Shown: in pieces, positions 5,563-64,000 of the stretch
Layout of the letters: each line of letters begins with the position of its first letter
Numbering within the stretch: the stretch's first letter is position 1
Assembly: GCA_965205345.1 (NCBI GenBank)
Contig: CBDBGQ010000053.1
Coordinates: 129,842-193,841, forward strand
DNA: 64,000 nt
Direction: 5' to 3'
DNA from: Acidobacteriota bacterium
Lineage (GTDB): Bacteria; Acidobacteriota; UBA6911; RPQK01; CBDAPI01
Notes under the pieces: generated by a model
What the model was told of the DNA's origin: nothing
The model's input: the letters and a program-made list of their open reading frames with translations, nothing else
Database searches by the model: none
Made by a program: the position numbers and the translations under genes

Positions 5563-7293
5563 TTACTTCTCAGACCTTGAAGACTTTGGCTTTACCGCAA
5601 TCTGGGTGGCTTCAACGACATGGAACTTCTCTCCTGCGGTGACGAGCTGGTTCCTGATCCGATCCTGAACTTCCACTTCCATGCGATATCTTCCGGGCCT
5701 TAAACTTTGGGGCGAGAAGATCGTGACCAGCACCACTCTACCCTGCGAGAAAAATTGAATCGCCTCTCCTTTCTCGTCGACCCGTTCCGCTACGTTCTCT
5801 CCTCCTTGCAAGAGCTTGTACCTCACCCGAAGTGACGGACGGTCCGTACTCTGGTCCATTCCAGCATTGTATACCTGGAGGTACACCCCAAGCGGTTTGG
5901 AAGACGAAAAGGTATTGCCTACGCTGGGACGAATCTTAAGGTCTCCCAACACGAACATCTGATCTTGTTGCTGAATGTCGTCTAGCTGCCGAATGGAGTC
6001 AGAGAGAATGAGAGAGCTTGCCACGAGTTCTTCCCCCGTGTACGAGGGAGTAAAAATGCCCTGGCGGATTACTCCCACCTTGCCACTATGCACATCTTTC
6101 ACCACCAGATCGAGCTTATAGCGCAACTTTCGGTCGAGTACGATTATTTTCTGATAAGTGGATCGTCTGTGGAGGCCTTGCTGGAAAAACTCGGCCTGAT
6201 AAGCATGGATAAGATCGTCTTCGAATTCCTTTATGATCCGCTTGGTGATCGTAGTCACCACACCATAAACTCCCACTTTGGCAACATACACGCCATTTTC
6301 TTCTTTAAAAGCGAGATTTTGGTTTTGCAACGTCAGTGTGATCGTGACCAGGACCTGCTCGTCGTTTAGTTTGAAATAATCTTTGCGGAGCTCAAAAGCC
6401 AAATCGTTGTAGGTGACGTTGACGTCAACCAGCTCTTTGAGGTCGTCGTAGTAGATCTTTTTGGGCCGCTGCACTCCGACAAAGGTCTCGTACCGAATGA
6501 ACGGATTGTCCTTGGCCCGTCGTGCTCTTAACGGGTAATATTCACGGTTACCGGATGCGAAGGATGGCCGGTTTGCCTTGGTAGCTAACCCGAACTGCTC
6601 GGCCAGAGTCAGCCCCACACCGGGAACGTGGAGCATTGCATCTTTTTCATCGGGACTCAGTGCCAAACGGTATTCACCGCTAAAGGACGGATCCACAAAT
6701 TCGAGCTCGACACCCTGACCAACTCCCTCGATATGCCGATACCACCAGACCTCGAACGGGTACGTGGATGTGGTTCCACCCCCTTCCCATGCCGGACGCC
6801 TGTATCGTCCTCCAGAGGGGTGCATTTCGACCTCGTCCGGGGGACCGTGAATGATATAAATGCGACCCCTGTCGCTCTTCCATCCGGGCAAACCACTGGC
6901 GAAGCGCTCGTTGGCATATGCAATGCGCCGGTAATGTTCTTCCCTGGACTGATTTATCGTCGTTCCAGGATCCGGATCCCGTCGGTACCAGAATTGTTCG
7001 ATAAATTGATCTTTTTCTTCCGGGGTCGTCAGGGTCTCAAAGACGGTCTTCTCTTCTGGCGTGATGATATACGTTATGTCTTCATGGAGCCACTTTCTGA
7101 AATAGTCTTGTTGCTCCTCTTGCTGTTGCTTATGCACATTGGCTTTGCTCTGTTGACCCGCCGCCGTGGTTGCACCCGAAATGAGCAGCACAGACGCAAC
7201 TCCTATCCCTGTCAAAAAGCAAATCTGGTTTTTCAGATTGCTGTGAGCCTTTGAATGTATCAATAGCAAAACCCTCCTACTCAGTTTCTTCAT
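5563..7293 (-). CDS. GWxTD domain-containing protein (secreted)
   Basis: Contains GWKSDRGRIYIIHGPPDE, the GWxTD signature, and an N-terminal hydrophobic signal. The family is characteristic of Acidobacteria. Confidence 0.75.
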   Translation of the reverse strand: MKKLSRRVLLLIHSKAHSNLKNQICFLTGIGVASVLLISGATTAAGQQSKANVHKQQQEEQQDYFRKWLHEDITYIITPEEKTVFETLTTPEEKDQFIEQFWYRRDPDPGTTINQSREEHYRRIAYANERFASGLPGWKSDRGRIYIIHGPPDEVEMHPSGGRYRRPAWEGGGTTSTYPFEVWWYRHIEGVGQGVELEFVDPSFSGEYRLALSPDEKDAMLHVPGVGLTLAEQFGLATKANRPSFASGNREYYPLRARRAKDNPFIRYETFVGVQRPKKIYYDDLKELVDVNVTYNDLAFELRKDYFKLNDEQVLVTITLTLQNQNLAFKEENGVYVAKVGVYGVVTTITKRIIKEFEDDLIHAYQAEFFQQGLHRRSTYQKIIVLDRKLRYKLDLVVKDVHSGKVGVIRQGIFTPSYTGEELVASSLILSDSIRQLDDIQQQDQMFVLGDLKIRPSVGNTFSSSKPLGVYLQVYNAGMDQSTDRPSLRVRYKLLQGGENVAERVDEKGEAIQFFSQGRVVLVTIFSPQSLRPGRYRMEVEVQDRIRNQLVTAGEKFHVVEATQIAVKPKSSRSEK

Positions 7294-7519
7294 ACCAACA
7301 TAGTGGTCGCAGGTCTTCGGTCGGAAGGCGGTGTATTGTTTCGCAGTAAGCAGATTCGAAAATCATCGTCACAAGGTTGTCTCTCCCCCCTCCTCCATCG
7401 AGGCGAAGACATAAACACCCGGGAAGGGCCAGGAACGGTGAATAACTTTACTGTAACTGTGCGATCCTATCATACGGGGACCGAGGCGAACCTCAAAGCA
7501 GAAAAAGAGCCAATTCAGG

Positions 7520-9967: not shown

Positions 9968-10178
9968 TGCACGTCTCCAGCAGGGTGAAACGGCTCCAAG
10001 CAGAACCGCTGTTCAGCAATCATAAACCTTCGCGAATGGTCTGGTCCATGACCATCAGCGCCGAGTCGATTTCGTGGTGCTGAATCGCCGTACCAGGCAG
10101 GTCAGCAAGCAGTCATCCCACAACAACACAGGATGATCCAGGAAGAAACGCCAATTCATGGCAGATGCAGACACGGCA

Positions 10179-11543
10179 CTACACCTCCCAGGGTTGCCGG
10201 TACTCTTTGGTCAGAAGCTGGTTGGCCTCCTGATCCCCTATAATCTCTTCTTTCTTCCAGTCCCATTCGATCTTACGGCCTACTTTCAAGGCAATGTTGG
10301 CCAGGTGTGGAGCTGAGGTTGAACGGTGACCGGTCTCGATGTCGGAGGTGGGTCTGCTCCGGGTCTTGAGGCAGTCAATGAAGTTGCGGACATGCACAAT
10401 GTGCATTCCAGACTCGGCCCCGACCCTGTACTCGGCCCTGGTTTTGCGATCGCGATCCTCGTCCTCCCAGGGTTTAGGCGGATTCCGGATACTTGCCACC
10501 TCTTGTAAATAGGGCGGCTCGATGTTCTCGGTAATGCCCGTGACCTCAGGCAAGACCTGAAAGCCGGCGCGGTTGAGGAACAGGGTGGCATCCGTTCCGA
10601 AGAACTCAATGCCGTAGTGGCTATCGTAAGGAGCGCGCGCGTTGGTGTCCCGATGGGAGTAAGTGGCGATGAAATCTGGATACTCAAACACCACTTCCAT
10701 GTTGTCGGGTGTTTCCTTGTCGTCTTGAATGACCCTTTTCGAGCTCGTCGCAAAGACACTCTTGGGAGCCTTGACGCCCATGGCCCAGTGGATGGCGTCG
10801 AAGTGGTGTGTGCCCCAGTCGGTCATTTTGCCTCCGGAGTAATCCCAGAACCAGCGAAAATAATAAATGAATCTGCTGGGGTGAAACGGGACCTCGGGAG
10901 CAGGACCCAGATACATGTCCCAATCCAGTCCCTCCGGCGCTGTCGAGATCGGGTGGGTTCCAATCCCGCGGGGAGACTCATTGACGAAGTTCCAGGAATG
11001 GACTCGGGTGACCTGTCCGATTTTCCCGCTGCGGATGAGGTCTACGGCTTCCTGGTAATGCGCACCGGAACGCTGTTGCGTCCCTACCTGTACGACACGG
11101 TCCGCACGCCGGGCGGCCTCCACCATTTTCCTGCCTTCGCGCAGGGTGTGAGAAAGCGGTTTCTCAGCGTAGACGTCCTTACCGGCCTCACAGGCGGCAA
11201 TCACGATTGGGGCATGCCAGTGGTCCGGTGTGGACACCACCACGACATCGACATCTTTTCGATCCAGAACCCGCCTGAAATCTGAGTAGGACTCGGCCTT
11301 GCCGTCGGCCATCTTCACTGCCCGATCCCGGTTGTGCTCCCAAACGTCGCAGACCGCCACCACATCCACTTCGGGCATTTTCAGGAAGTCGTTTAAATTG
11401 TATCTACCCATGCCGCCGCCGCCGATGGAGGCTACTCGAATCCGGTCATTCGCGCCTGCGGGCTGTTGATTTGCTGCCCAGGTCGTAGCGACGCCCACGC
11501 CCGCCATACTGCTGGAAACAAAAGTTCGCCTGTTCACTTTCAT
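10179..11543 (-). CDS. Gfo/Idh/MocA family oxidoreductase with twin-arginine (Tat) signal peptide
   Basis: Internal Met followed by NRRTFVSSSMAGVGVATTWAA (RRxF Tat motif), then the IGGGGMG NAD-binding motif. The ORF-track start at 11663 is probably too far upstream. Confidence 0.8.
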   Translation of the reverse strand: MKVNRRTFVSSSMAGVGVATTWAANQQPAGANDRIRVASIGGGGMGRYNLNDFLKMPEVDVVAVCDVWEHNRDRAVKMADGKAESYSDFRRVLDRKDVDVVVVSTPDHWHAPIVIAACEAGKDVYAEKPLSHTLREGRKMVEAARRADRVVQVGTQQRSGAHYQEAVDLIRSGKIGQVTRVHSWNFVNESPRGIGTHPISTAPEGLDWDMYLGPAPEVPFHPSRFIYYFRWFWDYSGGKMTDWGTHHFDAIHWAMGVKAPKSVFATSSKRVIQDDKETPDNMEVVFEYPDFIATYSHRDTNARAPYDSHYGIEFFGTDATLFLNRAGFQVLPEVTGITENIEPPYLQEVASIRNPPKPWEDEDRDRKTRAEYRVGAESGMHIVHVRNFIDCLKTRSRPTSDIETGHRSTSAPHLANIALKVGRKIEWDWKKEEIIGDQEANQLLTKEYRQPWEV

Positions 11544-11782
11544 GGCTCTGGTTCCCCTTCTTGGAGGTGATTTGTGTTTTCTGAAAGTCGGAAATCGGGC
11601 ACAGTCTAGCATGTTTCCGATCAAGACGCTGCCACTGGCCAGGAACTCCCGAATCGAAGACAATCCAGGCTCTACTGCGCAATGCTCGGTCTTGGGGTAC
11701 TGGACGGGCCGGCTGGAGGACTTTTATTCTGGACATGCTCCCGATCTCCCGGCTCCGCTGCCCTGTCTGGAGGTCAATACCC

Positions 11783-11947
11783 TTAGTGTACTGTCCGGAA
11801 AGTTCACGCCGCAACTTCGGGCGTCTTTTCGCCGACAGCATTGTTGCGCTAACTCGAAAAACTCCCGGTATTCCTGCGTCGCGCGCCTCACTGACGACGA
11901 AAATCCATCCCGAATTAACGACGCGGACTTCCCGGACAGCACACTAG
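11783..11947. mobile_element. MITE copy A (~165 bp), flanked by TTAG/CTAG
   Basis: Terminal inverted repeats gtgtactgtccggaaagttcacgccg ... cgcggacttcccggacagcacac. It is about 90 percent identical (reverse orientation) to the copy at 57700-57864. Confidence 0.7.
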
Positions 11948-11951
11948 ACGT

Positions 11952-13919
11952 CTAAAGAACTGACAGTTCGATTTCCACGCGCCGATTCTGTTGCTGACCT
12001 TCAGGGGTCTGGTTGTCAGCCGTCGGCTGGCCCTCCCCGGCACTTCTTGTTTCAAGTCGTCCTGCCTCGATGTTGTGCTGCTGGACCAGATAGTCCCGCA
12101 CGGTGGCGGCCCTCCGCCGGCCCACCCGAAGGTTCAGCTCCTCATCTCCCCGGTCGTCCGTGTGTCCTGTAATTACAGCTTTTAGTCCGGGTATTTGCTG
12201 CATCCTGAGCGCAATATAATTCAGCCTAGCCTTGGCCAAGTTATCTGGCTGCATTCCGTTGATTTGAATGATGAACCGCTCGCTGAACGGGTAAGAACCA
12301 GCATCGGTGGCGCTCCCGTCTCCATCATCCCCAACGGTCATCGAGACGCTGGATCGTCCCTCCGCGTTCGCTGACATCAGAGTCTTCTTCCAAAAATCTC
12401 GAGCCTCCTCGTGATATGAGAGCACTTCCCGGCGTTGATCCGTGTTATCCAAATCCGTGTCATCCAACGTGTTATCCAATTTGATGCGTTGGATGCGTTC
12501 CTCGACCCAATCGAGGAAGAATTGTGCGGAGCGTCTGCTGATTCGGCGTTTCGAAGAACCGATCTCAACGTAGAATGGTGCGGTTGAGGCGAAGCGAAAG
12601 GTTTGCTCGTTATCAGTGATGACTCGAACAAGGAACCAGCCGCTCTCTTGAAATTTCAGTGGCCCGAGAGCTCGTGAGAACGTACGTCCTCGTACCTTGT
12701 CCACCGACTCGACCGTGCCGTTTTTGATGATTTCAAGACTCGAAATCGGGTCTCTCGTTGTGACCGAGACGTCAAGAGTGACACTCACCTCTTTGCCCTC
12801 ATCTGCCGCGAAAACGTGGCCGGGCAGATGACCGTTTGCGCGACAGAGCAGCAGCGGTCCGTTTGTGACGAACGAGCGCCCCGCCTTCAGACCGTTCCAC
12901 CATCGCACATAATCAAAGGCTTTGCCGACATGGACATATACGCGGTTATAGCCTACTGGATTGGGGATTACACCCGAAGCACTTCCGGCTGAAGGGGGGA
13001 TGCGGAGTCCGCAGTCGAGAATGTGATAGTAGATTTCCTGCGACCAGTAACCGTTGCCCTTGGGCGGCGGAAAACGCTTTGAATCGCGTGGTTTGCCCGA
13101 GGCTTCGCTTTCATACATTTGGCTACGGCTCATATGATTGTTGGCCAGGCCGATCGAGTCGATCCGCCCACTCGCCAGCCAGATGGGTACATCCCACCAG
13201 AAGGGCTTCTCGATGTCGATCCATGCACCGGGATGTTGGCGGGCCTCATGGAAGAAATTCATCGAGGATGGATACTCTCGGCTTGATCCGGCAATCTTCA
13301 GCGGCCGGCCAAGATTGAGATATATCAAAGCCCCGCCCCCACGTTCATCTTCACCGGCCATGACATGGGCATACCGGTTGCCGTCGAACCTGAGCAAGGG
13401 CTTTTCAGGCATCTCGCGGTCGTTCCACAGATTCCTATCGTTCCACCACGTAATCACCGGTGCCACATGCAGATCTTCCGCCCGCATGAGGAGTTCGATG
13501 TCCTCAAGCGATCGGTGAACATGCAGCTCCCCCGACCACCAGCCATCAGCCGAAAGGTTGGCTATCCGCTTCAGACGGATCGACACTTTCGTGTTCTCAC
13601 CTTTCTTGGTGATAAACGAACCGCTCCGCTGCTCATACTCAGGGCCGCGCTCGACTTCGTAGGTGTACTTCCCGGGCGGGAGTTCCAGTGTGACTGTGCC
13701 AGGACAGACGAAATGGTCGCGCCAGAACGGCATATCCCCGGCACGCCGAGGCTTGCCGGCCGAATCGTTCACATGGATTCGACACGGAAGCAGACGAGAC
13801 TTATCGTCAACAACAGTGATCTGAACTGTGGGGTGGCTGTTCTGTGCGACACTCATAGCGGCAATACAGAGCGTCACAAGACACATAACACACGGGGCGC
13901 GTTGCCATAAACTGAACAT
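11952..13919 (-). CDS. Secreted PHP/CehA-McbA-type metallohydrolase domain fused to a C-terminal OmpA-like peptidoglycan-binding domain
   Basis: N-terminal signal sequence; the SGELHVHRS block is a PHP-type His motif. The C-terminus has the GHTDDRGDEELNLRVGRRRAATVRDYL ... NRRVEIEL OmpA_C signature. Confidence 0.65.
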   Translation of the reverse strand: MFSLWQRAPCVMCLVTLCIAAMSVAQNSHPTVQITVVDDKSRLLPCRIHVNDSAGKPRRAGDMPFWRDHFVCPGTVTLELPPGKYTYEVERGPEYEQRSGSFITKKGENTKVSIRLKRIANLSADGWWSGELHVHRSLEDIELLMRAEDLHVAPVITWWNDRNLWNDREMPEKPLLRFDGNRYAHVMAGEDERGGGALIYLNLGRPLKIAGSSREYPSSMNFFHEARQHPGAWIDIEKPFWWDVPIWLASGRIDSIGLANNHMSRSQMYESEASGKPRDSKRFPPPKGNGYWSQEIYYHILDCGLRIPPSAGSASGVIPNPVGYNRVYVHVGKAFDYVRWWNGLKAGRSFVTNGPLLLCRANGHLPGHVFAADEGKEVSVTLDVSVTTRDPISSLEIIKNGTVESVDKVRGRTFSRALGPLKFQESGWFLVRVITDNEQTFRFASTAPFYVEIGSSKRRISRRSAQFFLDWVEERIQRIKLDNTLDDTDLDNTDQRREVLSYHEEARDFWKKTLMSANAEGRSSVSMTVGDDGDGSATDAGSYPFSERFIIQINGMQPDNLAKARLNYIALRMQQIPGLKAVITGHTDDRGDEELNLRVGRRRAATVRDYLVQQHNIEAGRLETRSAGEGQPTADNQTPEGQQQNRRVEIELSVL

Positions 13920-20178: not shown

Positions 20179-20231
20179 CTAGTGCACTGTCCGGAAAGTT
20201 CACGCCGCGAACTTTCCGGACAGGACACTAG
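20179..20231. mobile_element. Miniature (53 bp) version of the MITE: the two TIRs fused, flanked by CTAG
   Basis: Sequence ctag-tgcactgtccggaaagttcacgccgcgaactttccggacaggaca-ctag. The terminal CTAG supplies the TAG stop codon of the adjacent TPR gene. Confidence 0.65.
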
Positions 20232-21118
20232 CGTTCCTGAGTACCAGCGTTAGCTTCTAATATTTTCTGTATTTTCTTGAGAGAAGGATTGTCCGAGTCT
20301 AGTTCGAGCGCACGTCTAATAACATCCAGTGCTTTCTTAAATTTACCCTGGTGTCCATAAGCAAGGGCAAGTCCCTCATGAGCTGCTGGATTTTGAGGAT
20401 CTAGTTCTGTCAGAGCATTAAATCGCTCTACAGCAGTTTTGAAGTCTCTCTCTTGCAAAGCTTTTTCACCTGAAGTGCGTAAAATGAATTGCTGGACCTC
20501 ATTTTTTGTTGAGCTAAAACCTGGATCCAATTCGGCTGCTCTTTCTGCTTCAGCCAAAGCCTGTTTCTCGTCTAGCATTCCTGCATAGGCGCGGGCCAAG
20601 TTATCGTGCAAGGTAGCATCCTCAGGATAATGATTTAAAAGTCTTTCCAGCCCTTGGATAGCGGTTTCAAAATCGTGATTGTTAAGTGACTCAAGCACTT
20701 TCTTCTCTAGGTCCTCAAACTCCTCTTGCTTAAGCAAAACTCTGTGGAGATGCTCGGCTGCTTGCATTTTGATCATCACCTTAAAAGGCATGTAGCCCTT
20801 AAGCTGAGCCTGAACCATATAGCTACCTGGCTGTAGACCCCTGAATTCGACTCGTCCCTCTGTATCCGACTTTCGGTAATTCGCTTCTCCCTCTTTTTCA
20901 TCCTCAGCATCCAGAAATATAAGCTGAGTCTCGACACTCTCTAAGGGATCTCCCTCCTTATCAACGAAAGTACAAACCAACGGGTGAGAGGCAACCCGGA
21001 AACCAAGCAAAAAAACAGACAGGATAGTCAGGCTGCTGGCCTTTCCCAGTGCTCTTAACATAGTGTTTCGCTCTCGGTCGCCGCAGAACGCATCAATGCT
21101 CCTTGCAAAAATATTCAA
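20228..21118 (-). CDS. Carboxypeptidase-regulatory-like domain plus TPR repeat protein
   Basis: N-terminal beta-sandwich block (GRVEFRGLQPGSYMVQAQLKGYMPF) followed by TPR units. Has a signal/TM segment after an internal Met. Confidence 0.6.
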   Translation of the reverse strand: MNIFARSIDAFCGDRERNTMLRALGKASSLTILSVFLLGFRVASHPLVCTFVDKEGDPLESVETQLIFLDAEDEKEGEANYRKSDTEGRVEFRGLQPGSYMVQAQLKGYMPFKVMIKMQAAEHLHRVLLKQEEFEDLEKKVLESLNNHDFETAIQGLERLLNHYPEDATLHDNLARAYAGMLDEKQALAEAERAAELDPGFSSTKNEVQQFILRTSGEKALQERDFKTAVERFNALTELDPQNPAAHEGLALAYGHQGKFKKALDVIRRALELDSDNPSLKKIQKILEANAGTQER

Positions 21119-32935: not shown

Positions 32936-33216
32936 TTAGCCGATTGGCCGTCGTTTCCGTAGGGCACGCCAATCTGGCGCTCCGAACGTGACTGGCTGGC
33001 AACACTGACCGGGGAATAGATACGACATACCCGATCCGTTCAGTTCGGCCACGGTTGATAACCGTGCCCTACGCCTGCTTAGCCAGTTGGTCGCTTTTGT
33101 AGGGCACGCCAATCTGGCGTGCCGAACGTGGCAGGCCTGCAGCACTGACCGGGAAATAAGATACACATGCCCGATCCGTTCAGTTCGGAACGGTTGATAA
33201 CCGTTCCCTACATGCG
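32936..33216. repeat. Two tandem copies of a ~140-bp highly structured element (candidate cis-regulatory or non-coding RNA, or REP-like element)
   Basis: Unit 1 spans 32936-33072 and unit 2 spans 33078-33216. They share gtagggcacgccaatctggcg..ccgaacgtg..cactgaccgg..ccgatccgttcagttcgg..cggttgataaccgt.ccctac. Each unit is bounded by a 10-bp inverted repeat (gtagggcacg/cgtgccctac) and has internal hairpins (cgcca-atc-tggcg; cacggtt-gat-aaccgtg). Confidence 0.6.
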
Positions 33217-37299: not shown

Positions 37300-40098
37300 A
37301 TGGTCGGGCAAACCATCTCCCATTACCGCATTTCCGAAAAGATCGGGCGGGGTGGAATGGGTGAGGTCTACCGGGCCACGGACACCAGGCTGAACCGGGA
37401 AGTGGCCCTGAAGGTGCTGCCGGAAGCCTTTGCCGGTGACTCCCAGAGAATGGGTCGATTCAGCCGCGAGGCGCGGGTCCTGGCCTCTTTCAGTCACCCC
37501 AACATTGCCGCCATCCACGGGCTGGTGGAATCCGACGGCAGCCGCGAGGCGCGGGTCCTGGCCTCTTTCAGTCACCCCAACATTGCCGCCATCCACGGGC
37601 TGGTGGAATCCGACGGCAAGCGAGCACTGGTGATGGAACTGGTGGAAGGCGAAGGCCTCTCGGAGCGGATCGACCGGAGTCTGATTCCGCTGGAGGAAGC
37701 TCTTCCGATTGCGCTGCAGATTGCCGAAGCGCTGGAAGCCGCTCACGAGAAGGGGATCATCCACCGGGACCTGAAGCCTGCCAACATCAAGATCACCCCC
37801 GAAGGGAGGGTGAAAGTACTCGACTTTGGCCTGGCCAAAGCACTGGAAACGGACGAGGTCGCTGAGTCCGACGCAACTCCAGACCTGACAGTGACCTGGA
37901 CGGAGGCGGGAGTGATTCTGGGAACGCCCCGCTACATGAGCCCCGAGCAGGCGCGGGGTAAGCCGGTGGACGAGCGGGCCGACATCTGGGCGTTTGGCTG
38001 TGTCCTGTTTGAAATGCTGACCGGACGAAAGACGTTTCAGGGAGAGTCGGTGTCGGACGTTCTGGCCTCGGTGCTCAAGACGGAGCCGGACTTGAATGGC
38101 ATACCGGCAAACACCCATCCCAGGATTCGGGAGCTACTACGCCGCTGTCTCCAGAAGGATCTCCATAAACGTTTTCAAGCCATCGGCGACGTGCGCATCG
38201 AGATCGAGGAAGTACTGGCGGATCCTGCCGGAGTATTGCAGGCTCCCATGAGCGCCGTGACTCAGGTGGGTTGGCGGCAGGGCATTCTAGCAAGTCTGGC
38301 GATCTTGGTCCTGGGCGCCAGCATCGCCGGCATCACCGTCTGGCTTCTAAAGCCTCAGCCCCCTGAGGAACCGCGTCGCGTTGCCCGCTTTGACATGACT
38401 CCACCACTTTTGGTGATCAGGCCGTTGAGTGGCCCGGATGTTGCCATCTCACCGGACGGGACACGTATCGCCTATGTCGCTCACGTGGATACCGGGAGGC
38501 AGCTCTACCTGCGTGAAGTTGATCAGTTGGAGACCATTCCTATCCGTGGCACCCAAGGCAGACTCATTGCCAGCCCCTTCTTCTCGCCAGATGGCAGCGA
38601 GATCGGTTTTTATGACAATCCTGTTGGTGGACCGGGCTCTTTGATAAAGGTGCCTGTCCAGGGAGGGGTGCCAGTGAAGCTCAGTGGTGCAGTCCAGCCA
38701 CTTTCAGGTGCAACCTGGCCAGTTTCAGGTGCCACCTGGGGAGCAGATGGGCGCATCATCTTCGGAACACAAGGAGCGGGGCTATTTCAGGTCCCGAAAA
38801 CCGGAGGGGAGGCTCAGGTCTTGACCACCCCGGATCCCGAGAAAGGCGAGACAGAACACAGGTTCCCTAAGATCCTACCCGGTGGCAAGGCTGTCCTTTT
38901 TGCGATCACAACAAGGGGGGGAGGCTATCAAATTGCTGTGCTTGACCTGGAAACGTTTCAACATCACATCCTGGTTCCAGGTAGAAATTCTCATTACTCC
39001 ACAACGGGACATATTGTCTATGGCCGAGAGGGAGCCTTGTGGGCGGTGCCCTTCGATCCGGCCAGGCTTGAAGTCACAGGCGATCCAGTCCCCGTGCTGG
39101 AGGAAGTGATCACCAAACCTAGTGGTGCGGTGAACTTCAGCCTGTCCAACGAGGGATCCCTCATCTATGTTCCTGGTCCCACCCAGGTGGCGGAGCGAGC
39201 ACTGGTGTGGGTGGATCGAAATGGCAAAGAGGATCCCCTGGATACAGATCTACGGCCTTACGCCTTTCCCCGAGTCTCTCCCGATGGCAATCAGGTGGCT
39301 GTAACCGTATATGATCTGGACAACGTTGATGTGTGGATTCATGACTTGGAGCACGACATCGAAATCAGGCTTACCCGCGACGAGTCTATGGACGCCTTCC
39401 CTCTCTGGAGCCCCGATGGTCAGCAGGTCGTGTTTGCTTCCGACCGGGGCGGGGCACTCCCGAATTTGTACATGAAATCGGCTGACGGCACGGGCCAGGT
39501 CGAGGGTCTGCTGACGAGCACAGACTACCTGATTCCCAACGCCTGGTCGCCTGATGGCAAGCTGCTGGTCTTTGCTCAGATGTCACTCGATGAGTGGAAC
39601 GATAACATCGGAGTCCTCTCAATGGACGGGGAACAACCCTCACGACGACTCCTCGATGAGGATTTTAATGAGTTGCACGCGGCCATCTCGCCCGATGGGC
39701 GCTGGGTTGCCTACGTATCCAATGAAACGGGGCAGGACGAGATCTACGTTCGGTCATTTCCAAACGTGGACGAAGGCAGGTGGCTGATCTCACACGACGG
39801 GGGACTCGCGCCCCTCTGGTCACCCGATGGAAAGGAGCTTTTTTATCGGAGCGGCAATAAGATGATGGTTAAGTCCGTCCAAACCGGGTCCACCTTCACT
39901 CACGGGATTCACAGAGTTCTATTCGAGGCAGAGTATATTTCTTGGGGCCCACGAGCCTATGACATTCACCCCGATGGTCAGCGGTTCTTGATGATCAAGG
40001 AAGCCCTGCAGACAGAGGAGGCCTCAGCACCCACGGAATTGATTCTGGTTCTCAACTGGTCTGAAGAACTCAAACGTCTCGTGCCGACGGACCGCTAG
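37300..40098 (+). CDS. Serine/threonine protein kinase fused to a C-terminal TolB-like (PD40/WD40-like) beta-propeller
   Basis: Kinase motifs GRGGMGEVY, HRDLKPANI, DFGLA and SPEQ, then a TM segment, then repeated SPDG..IAF/VS PD40 blades. Contains a perfect 78-bp in-frame tandem duplication (see repeat feature). Confidence 0.85.
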   Translation: MVGQTISHYRISEKIGRGGMGEVYRATDTRLNREVALKVLPEAFAGDSQRMGRFSREARVLASFSHPNIAAIHGLVESDGSREARVLASFSHPNIAAIHGLVESDGKRALVMELVEGEGLSERIDRSLIPLEEALPIALQIAEALEAAHEKGIIHRDLKPANIKITPEGRVKVLDFGLAKALETDEVAESDATPDLTVTWTEAGVILGTPRYMSPEQARGKPVDERADIWAFGCVLFEMLTGRKTFQGESVSDVLASVLKTEPDLNGIPANTHPRIRELLRRCLQKDLHKRFQAIGDVRIEIEEVLADPAGVLQAPMSAVTQVGWRQGILASLAILVLGASIAGITVWLLKPQPPEEPRRVARFDMTPPLLVIRPLSGPDVAISPDGTRIAYVAHVDTGRQLYLREVDQLETIPIRGTQGRLIASPFFSPDGSEIGFYDNPVGGPGSLIKVPVQGGVPVKLSGAVQPLSGATWPVSGATWGADGRIIFGTQGAGLFQVPKTGGEAQVLTTPDPEKGETEHRFPKILPGGKAVLFAITTRGGGYQIAVLDLETFQHHILVPGRNSHYSTTGHIVYGREGALWAVPFDPARLEVTGDPVPVLEEVITKPSGAVNFSLSNEGSLIYVPGPTQVAERALVWVDRNGKEDPLDTDLRPYAFPRVSPDGNQVAVTVYDLDNVDVWIHDLEHDIEIRLTRDESMDAFPLWSPDGQQVVFASDRGGALPNLYMKSADGTGQVEGLLTSTDYLIPNAWSPDGKLLVFAQMSLDEWNDNIGVLSMDGEQPSRRLLDEDFNELHAAISPDGRWVAYVSNETGQDEIYVRSFPNVDEGRWLISHDGGLAPLWSPDGKELFYRSGNKMMVKSVQTGSTFTHGIHRVLFEAEYISWGPRAYDIHPDGQRFLMIKEALQTEEASAPTELILVLNWSEELKRLVPTDR
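37462..37617 (+). repeat. Perfect 78-bp tandem duplication (2 copies) inside the kinase domain coding sequence
   Basis: 37462-37539 is identical to 37540-37617. It duplicates the 26 aa SREARVLASFSHPNIAAIHGLVESDG (alpha-C Glu through beta-4). Confidence 0.9.
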
Positions 40099-46875: not shown

Positions 46876-48210
46876 GGTTAAGCAACCGTTTTTCTGTAAT
46901 TTCCTCTAGGGCCTGTAGGGAAGAATTGCTCCACTTGTTTTTTCCAGCCGGCCAGGTTCAGGTATTGCCGGCCGGTTAACCACTCCTCGTGTATCTCTGC
47001 AAGCACAGCCGAGATGAGCCGCAGCGCCGATGCTTCGTGGGGAAAGATTCCCACCACCCGGGTTCGTCTCCGGATCTCCCGGTGCAGTCTCTCCAGTCCG
47101 TTGATGGTTCGGATCCTTCGCCACCAGCTCCTCGGAAAATCAAACACTGTCAGCCCTTCATCCAGGTTGTCTTCCAGCCAGCTCACGAACTCCGGTGCAA
47201 TCTTTTCGAACTTCTTGACGACTTTACCCTTGAGCTCCTCGGCATCCTCTCGAGACGGGGCATCGAAAATGTCCCGCATGGCCTGGGCGATGCGGGGCTT
47301 GTCCTCTTTGCGGCGAGCATATTGTTGGGCGTTTTTGCTCAGGTGAAACTGACAACGGTTCCAGGGCACCGACGGATAAACTGCCCGCCTGGCCGCCTTC
47401 AGTCCTTCGTGATCGTCACTGACCAACAGCTCGACCTCTCTCAGTCCACGCTTGTGCAGATCTCCCAGAAACCCTCGCCAATGCACCTCCGCTTCGCTGA
47501 TCTTGGCGCTCAGACCCAACACCTCTCGCGTCCCGAAACGATTGACTCCTATGGCTTTCAGGATGGCCACGTCCTGCACCCTGCCGCCTCTTCGAACCTT
47601 CTCGTAGTGGGCAGATACACGATCGGATACTCTCCCAGCTCCCGGCTTCGAAACTCTTCCAGCTCTTCGTCCAGCATCCCGGCCACTCTCGAGACCTGGG
47701 TGGCCGAGATCTCCAACCCACACAGCTGCTCCGTGATCTCGAGTGACTTTCCTCGTCGAGACGCCCATCACATACATCTCGGCAATGGCCAGCTTCAGGG
47801 CCTTCTCCGAACGGCAACCCCTCTCCAGCGACTTGGGATAAAACCTCAACCCACGCACCTGTGGAATCTCCAAGTGCAGCTCTCCCACTCGAGTCTGAAT
47901 CCGCTTGCCTTTGAATCCGTTTCGATAGCCTCGCCGACTGGCTGTTCTCTCGTACGCTTCCGCTCCCAGAAACTCGCTTCTTTCCAACTGCATCGCCACG
48001 TTGAACAACTTCTCCAGGATTCCTCGAAAGGCTTCTGTTCCTTCCTCGATCAACTCCGCCAGGATCTCCCGTGGTACTCTCTTTTCCAGATCTGGGTTCA
48101 TTTGATTCTCCTTGCCAGATTCTCGTTTCTGTTTTTGGAGAATCCTGTCCCAGACCTCTGTCTTTCCGACCCAAGGCCTGACCAGAAATTACAGAAAAAA
48201 AGTTACACTA
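46876..48210 (-). mobile_element. IS256-family insertion sequence (~1.33 kb) with ~26-bp imperfect terminal inverted repeats and a ~10-bp target-site duplication
   Basis: TIRs are aaccgtttttctgtaatttcc (left) and agaaattacagaaaaaaagtt (right, reverse complement). The direct repeat ctgtatttcg appears at 46866-46875 and 48211-48220. Confidence 0.8.
46878..48101 (-). pseudogene. IS256-family (mutator-type) transposase, carrying two compensating frameshifts
   Basis: N- and C-terminal thirds match IS256 transposases (AEMYVMGVSTRKV..., YEKVRRGGRVQDVAILKAIGVN...). About 45 residues in the middle are out of frame. The correct reading (ITEQLCGLEISATQVSRVAGMLDEELEEFRSRELGEYPIVYL) lies in another frame between about 47610 and 47745. 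Confidence 0.7.
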
Positions 48211-56154: not shown

Positions 56155-56250
56155 GATTGAATTATGTCAGATGGGACCCAGGGCGTGAAGGGCTTAGGAT
56201 TCAAACTGACCCACTACCAAAAGTTTTGACCCAGGCCAGCACCATCTACC

Positions 56251-57703
56251 CTAGCAGCCCGTGGTGAAAGTCGAGGATAAGGGGTCACACAGCGACACTA
56301 GACTGACCCCATGGCAATGGGGAAAAAGAAACGTCGACAGCAAGAAGACCTGTGGGTCGCCACCAGTGAGCTGCCCCGCACCGCCGGCCATCCCTTCTAC
56401 GAAAGACTGAATGGCCTTTTCAACGAACACGGCTTTGACGACTTCGTGGAGGGACTGTGTGCGAAGTTCTATGCAGACAAGATGGGGCGACCGAGCCTGG
56501 CTCCGGGAGTGTACTTTCGGCTGCTGCTGGTGGGGTATTTCGAAGGGATCGGATCGGAACGAGGAATAGCCTGGAGAGCAGCTGATTCTCTGGCACTGCG
56601 AGAGTTTCTGGGATTGAAACTGAGCGAGTCGCCGTCTGATCACTCCACGATCTCCCGAACCCGACGACTGATCGATGTGGCTACCCACGAAGCAGTCTTT
56701 GACTGGGTACTGAAGCGGATCGGGGCGAGCGGCCTGCTGCGGGGCAAGACGATCGGCATCGATGCCACTACGCTGGAAGCGAATGCAGCGCTGCGCAGCA
56801 TCGTGCGCCGGGACAGCGAGCAGGGGTATGAAGAGTTTTTGATGGAGCTGGCGAAAGCCTCCGGGATTGAGACGCCGCGACGGGAAGATCTGGCCAAACT
56901 GGACCGCAAGCGCACGGGCAAAGGATCGAACCGGGTTTGGAAGCACCCGCATGATGCGGATGCGCGGATTACCAGAATGAAGGACGGGCGGACGCACCTG
57001 GCGCACAAGGCGGAGCATGCAGTGGATCTGGAGACCGGAGCGATTGTCTCGGTGACGGTACAGGGAGCCGATCAAGGGGACACGCAGACCATGGTGAAGA
57101 CCCTGACGGAAGCGGCCGAGAAGGTGGAACAAGCGCTGCCGGAGGGACGAGGCATCGAAGAGGTGGTGGCCGACAAGGGGTATCACAGCACGCAGCGGAT
57201 GGTGGACCTGGATGCGGTGGGACTGCGCAGCTATGTGAGCGAACCGAGGCGAGGGAAGCGACGCTGGCGAGGAGACCGGCAGGGGCAGGAAGCGGTGTAT
57301 GCGAATCGGCGGCGCATCCGGGGAGAGCGAGGGCAGCGGCTGCTGCGGCAACGAGGAGAGCAGCTGGAGCGACCCTGTGCGCATCTGTACGGGAGCGGAG
57401 GGATGAGACGGCTGCATGTACGGGGACATGAGAATGTGTTGAAGCGACTGCTGATCCAGGTGAGCGCCTTCAATCTGGGGATGCTGATGCGTCAGAGCCT
57501 GGGTGTGGGAACGCCGCGGGGTCTGCAGGGGCGGATTTGCGCCCTGATGCTACTGATTTTGTCGCTGTTCAAGCGTCTTAAGGGCCTGTTCGGACTGATT
57601 CCGGCTGCTTGGCCCGAAAAACCCAACTCAGCGACCCCTTCGCTGCTTCCACCCGTGGGTACCACCTGAGCTCAGAAAACGTACTTCCACCACGGGCTGC
57701 TAG
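56251..57703 (+). mobile_element. IS5/IS1182-family insertion sequence flanked by CTAG on both sides
   Basis: TIRs are ctag-cagcccgtggtgaaagt (56251-56271) and acttccaccacgggctg-ctag (57683-57703). Confidence 0.7.
56311..57669 (+). CDS. IS5/IS1182-family DDE transposase
   Basis: Has an InsH-like N-terminal domain (FYADKMGRPSLAPGVYFRLLLVGYFEGIGSERGIAWRAADSLALREFLG). The C-terminal DDE region includes VADKGYHS. Confidence 0.75.
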   Translation: MAMGKKKRRQQEDLWVATSELPRTAGHPFYERLNGLFNEHGFDDFVEGLCAKFYADKMGRPSLAPGVYFRLLLVGYFEGIGSERGIAWRAADSLALREFLGLKLSESPSDHSTISRTRRLIDVATHEAVFDWVLKRIGASGLLRGKTIGIDATTLEANAALRSIVRRDSEQGYEEFLMELAKASGIETPRREDLAKLDRKRTGKGSNRVWKHPHDADARITRMKDGRTHLAHKAEHAVDLETGAIVSVTVQGADQGDTQTMVKTLTEAAEKVEQALPEGRGIEEVVADKGYHSTQRMVDLDAVGLRSYVSEPRRGKRRWRGDRQGQEAVYANRRRIRGERGQRLLRQRGEQLERPCAHLYGSGGMRRLHVRGHENVLKRLLIQVSAFNLGMLMRQSLGVGTPRGLQGRICALMLLILSLFKRLKGLFGLIPAAWPEKPNSATPSLLPPVGTT

Positions 57704-57864
57704 TGTACTGTCCGGGAAGTTCGCGTCGTTAATTCGGGATGGATTTTCGTCGTCAGTGAGGCGCGCGACGCAGCAATGCCGGGAGTATTTCGAGGTAGCG
57801 CAACAAAGCTGTCGGCGAAAAGACGCCCGAAGTAGCGGCGTGAACTTTCCGGACAGTGCACTAG
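57700..57864. mobile_element. MITE copy B (~165 bp), flanked by CTAG, abutting the IS5/IS1182 right end
   Basis: Reads ctag-tgtactgtccgggaagttcgcg ... cgtgaactttccggacagtgca-ctag. It is the reverse complement of copy A at about 90 percent identity and shares its left CTAG with the IS terminal CTAG. Confidence 0.7.
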
Positions 57865-57961
57865 CGACTCGTTTTGCCAAGATCGGTTGCAGAACTAGAA
57901 AGACCAGCCTACGGATGTGGTGATTCCAAAATCGTTGCTCTCCACGTCAGACCCGGGGGGA

Positions 57962-58993
57962 TCACTGTCGAAATTGTCGAACAGAGAAAAGCTCACAAAG
58001 AAGTCCTTGAAAACCTCGTAGCGGATACGGCTCTCCAGTGTCCACGCGTACGCGGCCAGGGGAACTCAAACTGGGGAAAATGCTCACTACGGTGGATATG
58101 TCCATTTCCGGGTCTTCGAAGCGGAACATCTCGATGTCCCAGGAAGCAAGGGCCTCAATGTTGTTCTGACCCCCCTGTCCCGAAAACCTTTCCCGCGTAA
58201 AAACAAGCCCACCCCCGGCAGTGACGAGCGTCCGATTCGATTGCACGACCGCGCGCCCGATCAGGCCTCCGAGAGTAGTGCGAAAGTCCAAGTCGAGTTC
58301 GTCGTTGGTGGTCCAGTTGGCCAGGCCGGTTGTGAACCACTTCTTGCGCAGGAAGTGTTGGCTCTGGAACCCGACCACGTGGCGCGAGGTGCTCTCCAGA
58401 CCTTCCTGACGGCTGAACAGCGAGCTGACACTGACTCCGGTCTTGCGCTCGCGAGTTCGATGGCTGGCTTCTGCACCAATCGTCAGTTGACCCACCCGGT
58501 TGGCGCGCGTAAAGGATGATCCCAGATCCACATAACCATCGAGGCGCTGCCAGAATCCGTCCTCAATTGGAGTTACCTTCACAATCGATGGCTGGTCCAG
58601 GGAGATCTGCTGACCCTGAGCGACGACCTCGATCTTTTCTTCCTGAGATGAGTCCAGGGAACTAAAAAACCTCTTTCCTTCCTGGGTTTCCACTTCAAAC
58701 ACGTGCTGGCTGGAGACCGACGCAATCTCATTCCACTCGACGTACACCGTGCCCATGTAGCTGGTGCTCACCTCCAGCTTACCTCGTTCCAGCTTCTTGA
58801 TTTCGCAGGTGAGCCGATCCCCGTTCTCCATGATGAGAACATCGGTTTTGTCACGTGCCCAAAGAGAGGTCAGCAACAGCGTGCTCACGATTGCCAGAAC
58901 CGGTAGCTTGGGTCGGTAGAACCTTATCAGTGCCCGTTTGGGAGCCATTCGATCGTTCACTTCAATCCTTCCATTGCTTTCGTTCCCCCCCAT
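57962..58993 (-). CDS. DUF481 family outer-membrane protein
   Basis: Has signal/TM LPVLAIVSTLLLTSLWA, then the DUF481 N-terminal block DVLIMENGDRLTCEIKKLERGKLEVSTSYMGTVYVEWNEIASV. The C-terminal ~30 residues may be off-frame. Confidence 0.55.
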   Translation of the reverse strand: MGGNESNGRIEVNDRMAPKRALIRFYRPKLPVLAIVSTLLLTSLWARDKTDVLIMENGDRLTCEIKKLERGKLEVSTSYMGTVYVEWNEIASVSSQHVFEVETQEGKRFFSSLDSSQEEKIEVVAQGQQISLDQPSIVKVTPIEDGFWQRLDGYVDLGSSFTRANRVGQLTIGAEASHRTRERKTGVSVSSLFSRQEGLESTSRHVVGFQSQHFLRKKWFTTGLANWTTNDELDLDFRTTLGGLIGRAVVQSNRTLVTAGGGLVFTRERFSGQGGQNNIEALASWDIEMFRFEDPEMDISTVVSIFPSLSSPGRVRVDTGEPYPLRGFQGLLCELFSVRQFRQ

Positions 58994-61951: not shown

Positions 61952-62416
61952 TCAAGGTGCAAGAAGGTTCTTTGACGGCAGAATTACTCCGGTCTCTTGC
62001 GAGTAGCGATTCCAGATCTCAATCATCTCGTCACGGAGTTGGGGCATTCGCCTGGACAAGTCAACTGTTTCACCCGGGTCCCTTGCCAGGTCATAGAGCT
62101 GCCAATCGTCTGGGTCAAACGGTTTGACCAACCAAAGTAATTTGTAATCGCCCTTCCGGACGGCACGCATTCCAAACAACTCCCAGCTCACAGCGGTATC
62201 GTCTTCATAAACGACGCTTGCCCTTCCGCTGAGCACAGGAGATAAGGACCGACCGCGTAGCCGCTCGACTTTACGGCCCTTGTAGGAGGTGCCGGGATGA
62301 GGTGTCTGCGACGCCTCTAGAATTGTCGCAGCGATATCCATGACGTGCGAAAAAGCACCACTCCGCGTGTTCGGCTTCTCGACGCCCGGCCCGGCCACGA
62401 TTAGCGGCGAGCGAAT
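61952..62416 (-). pseudogene. C-terminal fragment of a second (paralogous) arylsulfatase, truncated at the IS1-family element
   Basis: Reads GIRSPLIVAGPGVEKPNTRSGAFSHVMDIAATILEASQT...WELFGMRAVRKGDYKLLW...LYDLARDPGETVDL, parallel to the C-terminus of the sulfatase at 45240-46875. The frame runs straight into the IS inverted repeat, where it hits a stop. Confidence 0.7.
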
Positions 62417-63273
62417 TCCGGTGCTTCTTCAGGGAAGTGTTGTTGAGTTCTGACGACATTCCGCGGTGGCCTGTAATCGGATCGCGATCAAAACAAACAA
62501 AAGGAATACCGCACGACTTGTGAAGACGTCCCGGAATGAGAGCCTTTTTTTGGCCAGGCCAGCTTGCATGGCTGGAGTCCTCACAGTCGAGCCGAACTTC
62601 ACAGCCGTGTGCGGTCGCAGAAAGTTGTAATAGGCCATGAGCAGAGCCACCTGGCCTTCCAAGAATTCAGCGCGTCGGGCGTGAGAAGGTGTGCGACGGC
62701 CGACCACTACGGAGACCCAAAGTCTGGACCACACTTCCAGGGTCGTGAGCACCCAGATCACCCGCTCCTTTGCACCAACAAAGGTCCTGATCTCGTCGGC
62801 CTGAAGTTCACAGATCACAAAGCCTTTCAGCATCTGAGCGTTGAAACGCTGTGCGTATGCGGCTGCCGATTCAAGCCAGCGGGCGACTGTGACCCAGGAC
62901 ATCCGCTTGATGCGAGCCATGGCGGAGATCCCGATTCCATGGACACACATACGGACGACTTCATCGAACAAGGATCTGGGCTTATGCAGCCGATAATAGG
63001 GTGTTCCGTGGGTGGAAGAGAAGGTTCTGCCGCACTGCTTGCAACGGTAGCGCCGGCATCTGCCCTGTGTGGTGATGTAAAAGGAATGGCGGATGATGTT
63101 GCCTCTTCCTGAGAGTCCTTTGAAGGAGCAATCGGGGTTGGGACAGCAGCGAGATGATCTCTTGCTCCGTTTCATACATGTTTGTTGCCAGAAAACGAAG
63201 AGGAAATCCAGTTAGAATCATGTGTTACGAGGCTGTCCGCAAAAGTCAACAACACTTCCCTGAAGAAGCACCG
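62417..63273 (-). mobile_element. IS1/IS1595-family insertion sequence (~857 bp) with perfect 29-bp terminal inverted repeats
   Basis: ccggtgcttcttcagggaagtgttgttga at 62417-62445 and its reverse complement at 63245-63273. No target-site duplication. Confidence 0.75.
62429..63175 (-). CDS. IS1/IS1595-family transposase with N-terminal zinc finger
   Basis: Has CPNPDCSFKG...CKQCGRTF (InsA-like zinc finger). ELQADEIRTFVGAKERVIWV and LLMAYYNFLRPHTAV...TPAM blocks parallel the other IS1-like transposase in this window. Confidence 0.7.
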   Translation of the reverse strand: MKRSKRSSRCCPNPDCSFKGLSGRGNIIRHSFYITTQGRCRRYRCKQCGRTFSSTHGTPYYRLHKPRSLFDEVVRMCVHGIGISAMARIKRMSWVTVARWLESAAAYAQRFNAQMLKGFVICELQADEIRTFVGAKERVIWVLTTLEVWSRLWVSVVVGRRTPSHARRAEFLEGQVALLMAYYNFLRPHTAVKFGSTVRTPAMQAGLAKKRLSFRDVFTSRAVFLLFVLIAIRLQATAECRQNSTTLP

Positions 63274-63400
63274 GATTTGCGAAGAATATCGGTTGGGGAG
63301 GCGTTTGAGTGGTTGGGGGAGTGAATTTCAGACAGATCTGGGCCTGGATGAGTATCGGAAGCGGTTTTTTGGGGAACTGGGAGAAGCTAGCTGGAGTTGA

Positions 63401-63614
63401 GGCGACTCAAGACGAGGTGGAAGAGGGGTTGTTCGGGAAAGGCTGAGGAAAGATGGACCCAGATGCGTCGAGTGGTTTGTCGGATGCGGGCCCCGATCTT
63501 GAGGACAGGCGACTCAAGACGAGGTGGAAGAGGGGTTGTTCGGGAAAGGCTGAGGAAAGATGGACCCAGATGCGTCGAGTGGTTTGTCGGATGCGGGCCC
63601 CGATCTTGAGGACA
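63401..63614. repeat. Perfect 107-bp tandem duplication (2 copies)
   Basis: 63401-63507 is identical to 63508-63614 (ggcgactcaagacgaggtggaagaggggttgttcgggaaagg...ccccgatcttgaggaca). It covers the 3' end of the IS4-like transposase ORF. Confidence 0.9.
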
Positions 63615-64000
63615 CGACGACGTAAGGTTTCGATTTCGAGCTTGTGCCAGGGAGTCCCGTGCAGATAGTCGCGGAGGCGCACGAACATCTGGTAAGCCAG
63701 TGCATGCAGGAGGAGTCGAAACTGATTGGCCAGGAATCGATGACAGCTGAGTCGGTCCATGCTCAGATGATTCTTGAAGGCCTTGATGAAGTTCTCGGTC
63801 TGCCCTCGGTTTGTATAGTGGTCATAAAGTGATTGGGAGCAGAGATCGTCCCGGTTGGTGACCACAAAGCGACGATTGATCCCGCGCTGATCGACCTCCA
63901 CTTTGACAATGACGCGACGGGATCGATCCCAGCTCTTGGCTCGATAAAGAAACTCGTCAAACTGACGCTGTTTTTCCTCCAGCTCAACGAACTGCAGCCG
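63407..64000 (-). CDS. IS4/IS1380-like DDE transposase, C-terminal part (5' end beyond window)
   Basis: Own translation continues open to position 64000 (...RLQFVELEEKQRQFDEFLYRAKSWDRSRRVIVKVEVDQRGINRRFVVTNRDDL...). Has the YTNRGQTENFIKAFKNHLSMDRL Y-x2-R-x3-E-x6-K signature of the IS4/IS5 superfamily. Confidence 0.6.
   Translation of the reverse strand, partial: RLQFVELEEKQRQFDEFLYRAKSWDRSRRVIVKVEVDQRGINRRFVVTNRDDLCSQSLYDHYTNRGQTENFIKAFKNHLSMDRLSCHRFLANQFRLLLHALAYQMFVRLRDYLHGTPWHKLEIETLRRRVLKIGARIRQTTRRIWVHLSSAFPEQPLFHLVLSRLSSRSGPASDKPLDASGSIFPQPFPNNPSSTSS

Follow-up and report, generated by a model that had tools for sequence, protein, structure and literature searches.

A perfect, in-frame tandem duplication of 78 bp lies inside the catalytic domain of a membrane Ser/Thr kinase gene in the window (the whole 64-kb stretch of DNA analysed here), and it raises a simple question: was this segment duplicated in the genome or only in its assembly? 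The original prediction had offered a very recent event or an assembly artefact as the choices; this is the right frame, and the evidence leans to artefact. To judge from the sequence comparisons set out below, the second copy is probably a false duplication, produced in long-read metagenome assembly or polishing and laid over a single-copy kinase gene. The features concerned are collected in Table 1.

Table 1. Positions of the kinase gene and of the tandem repeats discussed in the text
Feature	Position in window	Strand	Basis or extent
Kinase-TM-propeller host gene	37300..40098	+	ORF, Pfam, homologues, PDB matches
Copy 1 of 78-bp duplication	37462..37539	+	residues 55-80
Copy 2 of 78-bp duplication	37540..37617	+	residues 81-106
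Imperfect 21-bp tandem repeat (LSGATWP/VSGATWG), propeller region	38686..38739	+	Tandem Repeats Finder, homologue comparison
107-bp perfect tandem duplication, 3' end of DDE_Tnp_1_4-type transposase gene	63400..63614	-	whole-window scan

The kinase and its doubled segment

As recorded, the host gene encodes a product of 932 aa, which becomes 906 aa when the extra copy is left out. A Hanks-type Ser/Thr kinase domain is followed by one hydrophobic transmembrane segment (…GILASLAILVLGASIAGITVWLL…) and then by a beta-propeller of the TolB/PD40 type. The kinase domain matches PF00069 with an E-value of 3e-54 (184.5 bits, cut-off 31.7), in a match that is broken into two stretches at the duplication, and the propeller, C-terminal to the membrane segment, matches PF07676 (PD40/TolB-type repeats; E = 2e-31). 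Tricorn_N/PD40 assignments are also precomputed on all close homologues. Thousands of homologues share this architecture, mostly in Acidobacteriota, so the gene family is ordinary and abundant; a scan of the GTDB representative genomes gave distant relatives only, at no more than 47% identity.

The best matches of the kinase part in the PDB are PknA, PknB and StkP (E = 1e-47 to 1e-41), and these alignments are likewise interrupted at the extra 26 residues, with query residues 2-85 and 105-297 falling on contiguous residues of PknA. The columns that are invariant among 98 homologues are all kept (G16/G18/G19/G21, K38, E57, H155-R156-D157, N162, D175-F176-G177 and S214-P215-E216), and the protein has both the domain profile and the catalytic motifs of a Hanks-type Ser/Thr kinase. 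The canonical N-lobe spacing, from beta3 through alphaC and beta4 to beta5, is lost in the sequence as recorded and is recovered with one copy removed.

The two copies are adjacent, in frame and 100% identical, as originally described; direct reading of the sequence, the ORF and Tandem Repeats Finder agree on this, the last reporting 37461-37618, period 78, 2.0 copies, 100% matches and a score of 316. With an expectation of about 64000 x 4^-78 for a perfect adjacent 78-mer, a chance origin is excluded, and there are no Ns close to the duplication. Identity between the copies runs 1 bp past either edge, giving a junction microhomology of 2 bp, which is no more than chance would provide and is compatible with a real event without indicating one. 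The 26 residues that are doubled, SREARVLASFSHPNIAAIHGLVESDG (residues 55-80 and again 81-106), comprise in copy 1 the C-terminal half of helix alphaC with E57, the HPNI loop, strand beta4 and the beta4-beta5 turn. The duplicated segment does include the alphaC glutamate (E57, invariant in the 98 aligned homologues) and HPNI, as had been claimed; the structural model puts HPNI in the alphaC-beta4 loop and beta4 at 72-77.

That model, an MSA-based AlphaFold2 prediction from the 98-sequence alignment, gives a confident canonical kinase fold (pTM 0.83). Copy 1 supplies alphaC (48-62) and beta4; the residues of copy 2 (81-106) come out as a disordered, low-confidence loop (pLDDT 27-44) ahead of beta5 (108-113). 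The MAFFT alignment had put its gap at copy 2, so the model's choice of copy is not an independent result; a single-sequence AlphaFold run reached a pLDDT of only 32 and was discarded. An insertion at any position of the unit would look the same as a tandem duplication, so the protein could use the alphaC of copy 1 and the beta4 of either copy; a fold that joins the first alphaC to the second beta4 would amount to a 26-residue insertion in the alphaC-beta4 loop. The suggestion that the duplication points to a pseudokinase found no support, every catalytic motif being present and the canonical fold being kept in the model. We reject it: the beta3 Lys, the HRD Asp and the DFG Asp are all retained, so that by sequence this is not a pseudokinase, a criterion that speaks to sequence only and not to a loss of activity through a disrupted fold.

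Occurrence in relatives and in other assemblies

The distance from the G-loop to the HRD motif is 111-114 residues in 120/120 homologues, vs. 139 (26 more, exactly) in the window protein, which is the only one of them with an internal repeat. Seven proteins make up the nearest cluster (at least 90% identity). Only one of these, P0125, has 932 residues; it is identical to the window protein, so it is the window's own deposit and no independent support. Looking up the exact protein, for the window kinase and P0125 alike, gave nothing on record. The other cluster members that cover the N-lobe (P0001, P0121, P0123 and P0126) have a single copy, as does the 85% orthologue P0002. At the DNA level a single 78-bp unit is found in five contigs from five samples (L001, L083, L084, L085 and L086), which are independently assembled, belong to the same species, are 99.7-99.9% identical to the window and share with it the gene order VWA, HNH, kinase, DUF488, phosphoesterase. 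The comparison with orthologues that had been suggested at the outset gives one answer, a single copy, in the five sister strains, in P0002 and in all 120 homologues. A junction-centred peptide compared with 5.8 billion protein representatives found no protein reading across the junction, its four high-coverage matches being ordinary single-copy kinases; a search of the JGI metagenomes with the repeat boundary and the junction gave zero matches in a collection from which the species itself is absent. The 78-bp duplication is private to one record. It is not seen in a second independent genome, as an inherited slippage duplication would be, and it shows two attributes of an assembly false duplication, identical copies and absence from independent assemblies.

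The shorter repeat in the propeller region, LSGATWP/VSGATWG, had also been noticed in advance, and it is borne out. It is found in P0001, P0121, P0123, P0124 and P0126, i.e. in every strain-level relative, is single-copy in P0002 and is absent from more distant homologues. Its presence in all strain-level relatives and not in the 85% orthologue marks it as a real, older and fixed duplication of 7 residues, inherited in more than one independent genome. Both repeats are head-to-tail and in frame, in the manner of natural slippage-type duplications; the 21-bp repeat is diverged (80-90% matches) and common to all strains, whereas the 78-bp repeat is perfect and private.

A second private perfect duplication, with a unit of 107 bp, lies in the window 26 kb from the first. 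As its period is not a multiple of 3, the frame of the transposase gene is shifted, and the recorded protein ends in …SRL plus 32 frameshifted residues in place of the native …SRLNSS*; removal of one unit brings back exactly that native C-terminus. L085 has two further copies of this IS and L083 has one, and each of the three contains a single 107-bp unit. A query with the window gene at 57962-58993, intended to reach the 63.4-kb locus in the sister strains, gave no match. Diverged tandem duplications with a period above 25 bp were absent from the scan of the whole 64-kb window. Among the mobile elements of the window is also one of the IS256 family (46876-48210), which is found in L084 and not in L001.

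All fetched loci were scanned for perfect two-copy tandem repeats with a period below 500 bp. The 64 kb of the window have two such small duplications, and eight loci (177 kb) from MAGs whose isolate names are UUID-style have three, of 71 bp (L008), 208 bp (L021) and 111 bp (L054). Contigs with names of the form ctgN_Cx_l (six strain-level or related, and four further loci from them; 226 kb) have no small duplication, and one perfect duplication of larger size, 1531 bp, of a whole IS in L087. None was found in long-read loci with MFD/contig_N, Flye-style naming (24 loci, 533 kb). The 49 short-read loci (606 kb) have one, at a contig end (L044). The P0004 contig is labelled 'ENA+NCBI' and named ctg493856_8.56x_l, which identifies contigs of the ctgN_Cx_l style as those deposited as MAGs; the window's 357,655-bp contig, known from both NCBI and ENA, very probably belongs to the same deposit family. 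Pooled, this deposit family accounts for five events in its 467 kb, as against no event in the 1.14 Mb from elsewhere, the contig-end case in L044 aside; this gives (467/1606)^5, or about 0.002, on a grouping by assembler (window, UUID MAGs, Flye-style controls) that rests on the style of contig names and one 'ENA+NCBI' link. The sister-strain contigs have none in their 226 kb, so an artefact rate, if there is one, varies within the family.

Three of the five events break a reading frame (those of L008 and L021, where genes are split, and the 107-bp duplication of the window), and the 78-bp and 111-bp events are in frame; two in five is the proportion to be expected of lengths that ignore coding. 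All five junctions have a microhomology of 0-2 bp. The same type of event recurs, without regard to frame, in one assembly family, its assembler being assigned by naming only.

Origin and weight of the extra copy

Four circumstances make us lean to an artefact: the duplication occurs in one record only, another perfect private duplication lies in the same 64 kb, such events are enriched in one family, and reading frames are hit at random. The false copy would have arisen when long metagenomic reads were assembled into the contig or used to polish it, and the underlying gene would be a single-copy, 906-residue member of the common acidobacterial membrane Ser/Thr kinases with a periplasmic TolB-like propeller. 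Contig names give a coverage of 7-14x for the window's species, and homopolymer frameshifts are seen in the relatives. The ctgN_Cx_l header style we take to be the contig naming of metaMDBG, and the assembler would presumably be of the minimizer-space type, with the error falling at a seam between joined read substrings or between 500-nt consensus windows, a seam whose length scale would be about that of the 70-210-bp duplications.

False duplications with no long-read support at all have been described for long-read metagenome assemblers, and more repeats were reported for metaMDBG than for any other assembler (10.1101/2025.04.22.649783). In metaMDBG, contigs are made by concatenating the read substrings between minimizers and discarding overlaps, at a minimizer density of 0.005 or a spacing of about 200 bp, and polishing proceeds in 500-nt windows that do not overlap (PMC11392814). 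According to the nanoMDBG paper, the racon-like polishing of metaMDBG in 500-bp windows had an issue that led to clipping events, and duplication could result from overlaps that were missed (PMC13087279). That such seams could yield duplications of 70-210 bp is our own suggestion. The junction of L008 is at 13,017 (26 x 500 + 17), and a distance of 25,967 bp (52 x 500 - 33) separates the two junctions in the window; these comparisons with multiples of 500 nt are suggestive but post hoc, coordinates drift in polishing, and we do not use them as evidence. As a counterpoint to the artefact, real duplications of 78 bp are easily resolved by long reads, and both events in the window could equally be private real mutations.

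The extra copy might, then, be a real and very recent strain-private duplication, produced in frame by slippage or unequal exchange and neutral or mildly damaging, in one of many paralogous kinase genes of an IS-rich genome under relaxed constraint; this we regard as the main alternative and a serious possibility, if a somewhat doubtful one. The event is clean and in frame, and this gene already has a fixed 21-bp duplication of greater age. Divergence among the six strains is roughly even, at 1.1-2.7 SNPs per kb, which leaves time for a private duplication, and they differ structurally, with private or partly shared IS insertions in L085, in L086 and in the window and L084. Insertions also break up the kinase gene, with an IS in L086, a segment of 1.2 kb in L085 and an element of the IS256 type in the orthologue of L002; the gene looks dispensable for that reason, and a private in-frame duplication in it is not implausible. 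The sister contigs, apparently from the same pipeline, are free of small duplications over their 226 kb, and the AlphaFold2 model keeps its confident kinase core with copy 2 looped out. Against a real mutation stand the restriction to one record and the second perfect private duplication within the same 64 kb. The comparable density of another MAG, OZ245365.1, with two in 69 kb, would moreover imply some 100 or more lesions per genome, most of them frame-breaking, the window holds no diverged intermediates with a period above 25 bp, and the microhomology at the junction is only 2 bp.

A more elaborate proposal, which we consider very unlikely, is that the duplication is both real and functional, an unstable repeat beside alphaC that changes the regulation of the kinase, by constitutive activation or by inactivation, and can collapse by recombination, acting as a reversible switch. 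It is in frame and lies where alphaC and beta4 form a regulatory hub; FLT3 and EGFR/ERBB2 are activated by in-frame duplications and insertions close to alphaC, and heteroresistance can arise from in-frame duplications that are unstable in bacterial sensor kinases. The duplication does not, however, recur in any strain or homologue, one event in three would be in frame by chance and most of its sister events break the frame, no sign of selection is seen, and every point that favours an artefact weighs against a switch as well. Were it true, an environmental acidobacterium would have a Hanks kinase whose alphaC-beta4 module is doubled. Finally, unmerged concatenation of short-read contigs overlapping by k or k-1, or an error in gap closing, is a classic origin of perfect direct repeats, as in the contig-end example of L044, but it is rejected here as extremely improbable, because periods of 71, 78, 107, 111 and 208 bp match no single k, the events sit inside contigs of several hundred kb and are not flanked by Ns, and the related contigs carry long-read assembler-style names and reach 0.2-4 Mb.

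The main value of the finding is as a flag on data quality, and its biological weight is small; even if real, the duplication is a single private lesion, in a kinase gene that has many paralogues. Perfect duplications of 70-210 bp occur at about 10 per Mb in these long-read MAG deposits, vs. none in 1.1 Mb of comparable loci from other pipelines (L044 aside), and they lengthen or frameshift proteins that enter public databases, where P0125 already represents the 932-residue form. Screening whole genomes for duplications of this kind, with reads as the check, would filter for quality at little cost.

Comparison with known systems

The closest solved kinase domains are those of PknA and PknB of M. 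tuberculosis and StkP of S. pneumoniae. The window kinase resembles the Hanks-type kinases with a propeller sensor in its N-terminal PknB-like domain, single TM segment and C-terminal beta-propeller; PknD likewise joins a kinase to a beta-propeller. It differs from the known Hanks-type propeller kinases in that its propeller is of the TolB/PD40/Tricorn type, and from every relative in that its recorded N-lobe is 26 residues longer.

Among eukaryotic kinases, FLT3-ITD and the exon-20 insertions of EGFR/ERBB2 are likewise, as is generally known, in-frame duplications or insertions in the N-lobe by alphaC and the alphaC-beta4 loop. Those cases are recurrent, selected and shown to be activating, whereas the window duplication is a single unreplicated record and probably not real.

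Documented false duplications are mostly longer than those discussed here and have been found by read clipping, in contrast to events of 71-208 bp known from contigs alone. In other respects the likeness is close: a perfect direct repeat is present in the contig only and absent from independent assemblies of the same population, coverage is low, ORFs are spurious or altered, and the events are enriched in one assembler family.

Kinase gene in related strains

The orthologous kinase gene is broken by an IS or other insertion in two sister strains (L086 and L085) and in the 85% orthologue at L002, and it is frameshifted in the sister-strain contigs L084 and L001, though these frameshifts may be low-coverage indel errors, given that L084 has a split Peptidase_S58 as well. 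The kinase gene looks dispensable in the window's lineage. In P0121, the kinase protein of sister strain L083 (gene 10001-12721), Pro is found for Leu at residue 37, directly N-terminal to the catalytic beta3 lysine (VAPKVL vs. VALKVL); the change is either genuine or, at 7x coverage, an error of the consensus.

The window kinase gene also contains an imperfect 21-bp repeat. Every strain-level relative has it and the 85% orthologue P0002 lacks it; this duplication of 7 residues in the beta-propeller region is genuine and has become fixed. Elsewhere in the window, the two copies of a 99-nt direct repeat lie 140 bp apart, start to start.

Coordinates of repeats, insertions and mobile elements
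Feature	Locus	Position	Remarks
Insertion in orthologous kinase gene	L086	6379-7794	IS or other insertion
Insertion in orthologous kinase gene	L085	about 6188-7413	IS or other insertion
Insertion in orthologous kinase gene	L002	12455-13678	IS or other insertion; 85% orthologue
Imperfect 21-bp tandem repeat	window	38686-38739	encodes LSGATWP/VSGATWG
99-nt direct repeat	window	32950-33048, 33090-33188	82% identity
Perfect 107-bp tandem duplication	window	63400-63614	out of frame
248-aa Cys-rich ORF	window	62429-63175 (-)	
Perfect 71-bp tandem duplication	L008	19166-19307	MAG with UUID-style isolate name
Perfect 208-bp tandem duplication	L021	8407-8824	MAG with UUID-style isolate name
Perfect 111-bp tandem duplication	L054	6346-6560	MAG with UUID-style isolate name
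Complete 1531-bp IS, perfect head-to-tail duplication	L087	3288-6308	
IS256-family (Transposase_mut) element	window	46876-48210	direct repeat CTGTATTTCG on flanks
Short inverted-repeat-ended element	window	11784-11949	families D5/D6
Short inverted-repeat-ended element	window	20180-20233	families D5/D6
Short inverted-repeat-ended element	window	57701-57866	families D5/D6
Kinase-TolB-propeller paralogue array	L088	1-20830	

Further perfect duplications

The window holds a second perfect tandem duplication, of 107 bp. It lies in a minus-strand gene for a DDE_Tnp_1_4-type transposase, at the 3' end; the gene extends past the window end at 64000. The unit is present once in other copies of the IS (two in L085, and in L083), and deletion of one unit recovers the native transposase terminus, ...SRLNSS*. 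Adjoining this IS is a Cys-rich ORF with a zinc-finger-like N-terminus and no Pfam match, possibly a transposase; it is bordered by inverted copies of the sequence encoding NNTSLKKHR, and together with these flanks (~62400-63280) it resembles a small IS that has gone in next to the one bearing the duplication.

Three comparison loci likewise carry perfect duplications. Those of L008 and L021 cause frameshifts, splitting an IS5-like transposase gene and a small membrane protein gene, respectively, and that of L054 lies in frame within a 465-aa gene; L021 and L054 belong to one chromosome, OZ245365.1. The duplicated IS of locus L087 encodes a 443-aa DDE_Tnp_1_4 transposase and is adjoined by a third copy of 501 aa; the pair may represent a genuine IS dimer or have arisen through misassembly.

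Mobile elements and family amplification

The IS256-family element is missing from L001 and apparently occupies the equivalent site in L084, and is thus a polymorphic insertion common to two independent assemblies. The short element with inverted-repeat ends, present in three window copies, could be MITE-like or serve as a target for IS insertion. Exactly at the equivalent of window 11784, loci L089 and L092 have a DUF772/DDE_Tnp_1 IS that is 99.4% identical to window 56249-57738.

In locus L088, on a single 2.96-Mb contig, at least nine kinase-TolB-propeller paralogues lie in a consecutive array, showing massive amplification of this family in some Acidobacteriota.
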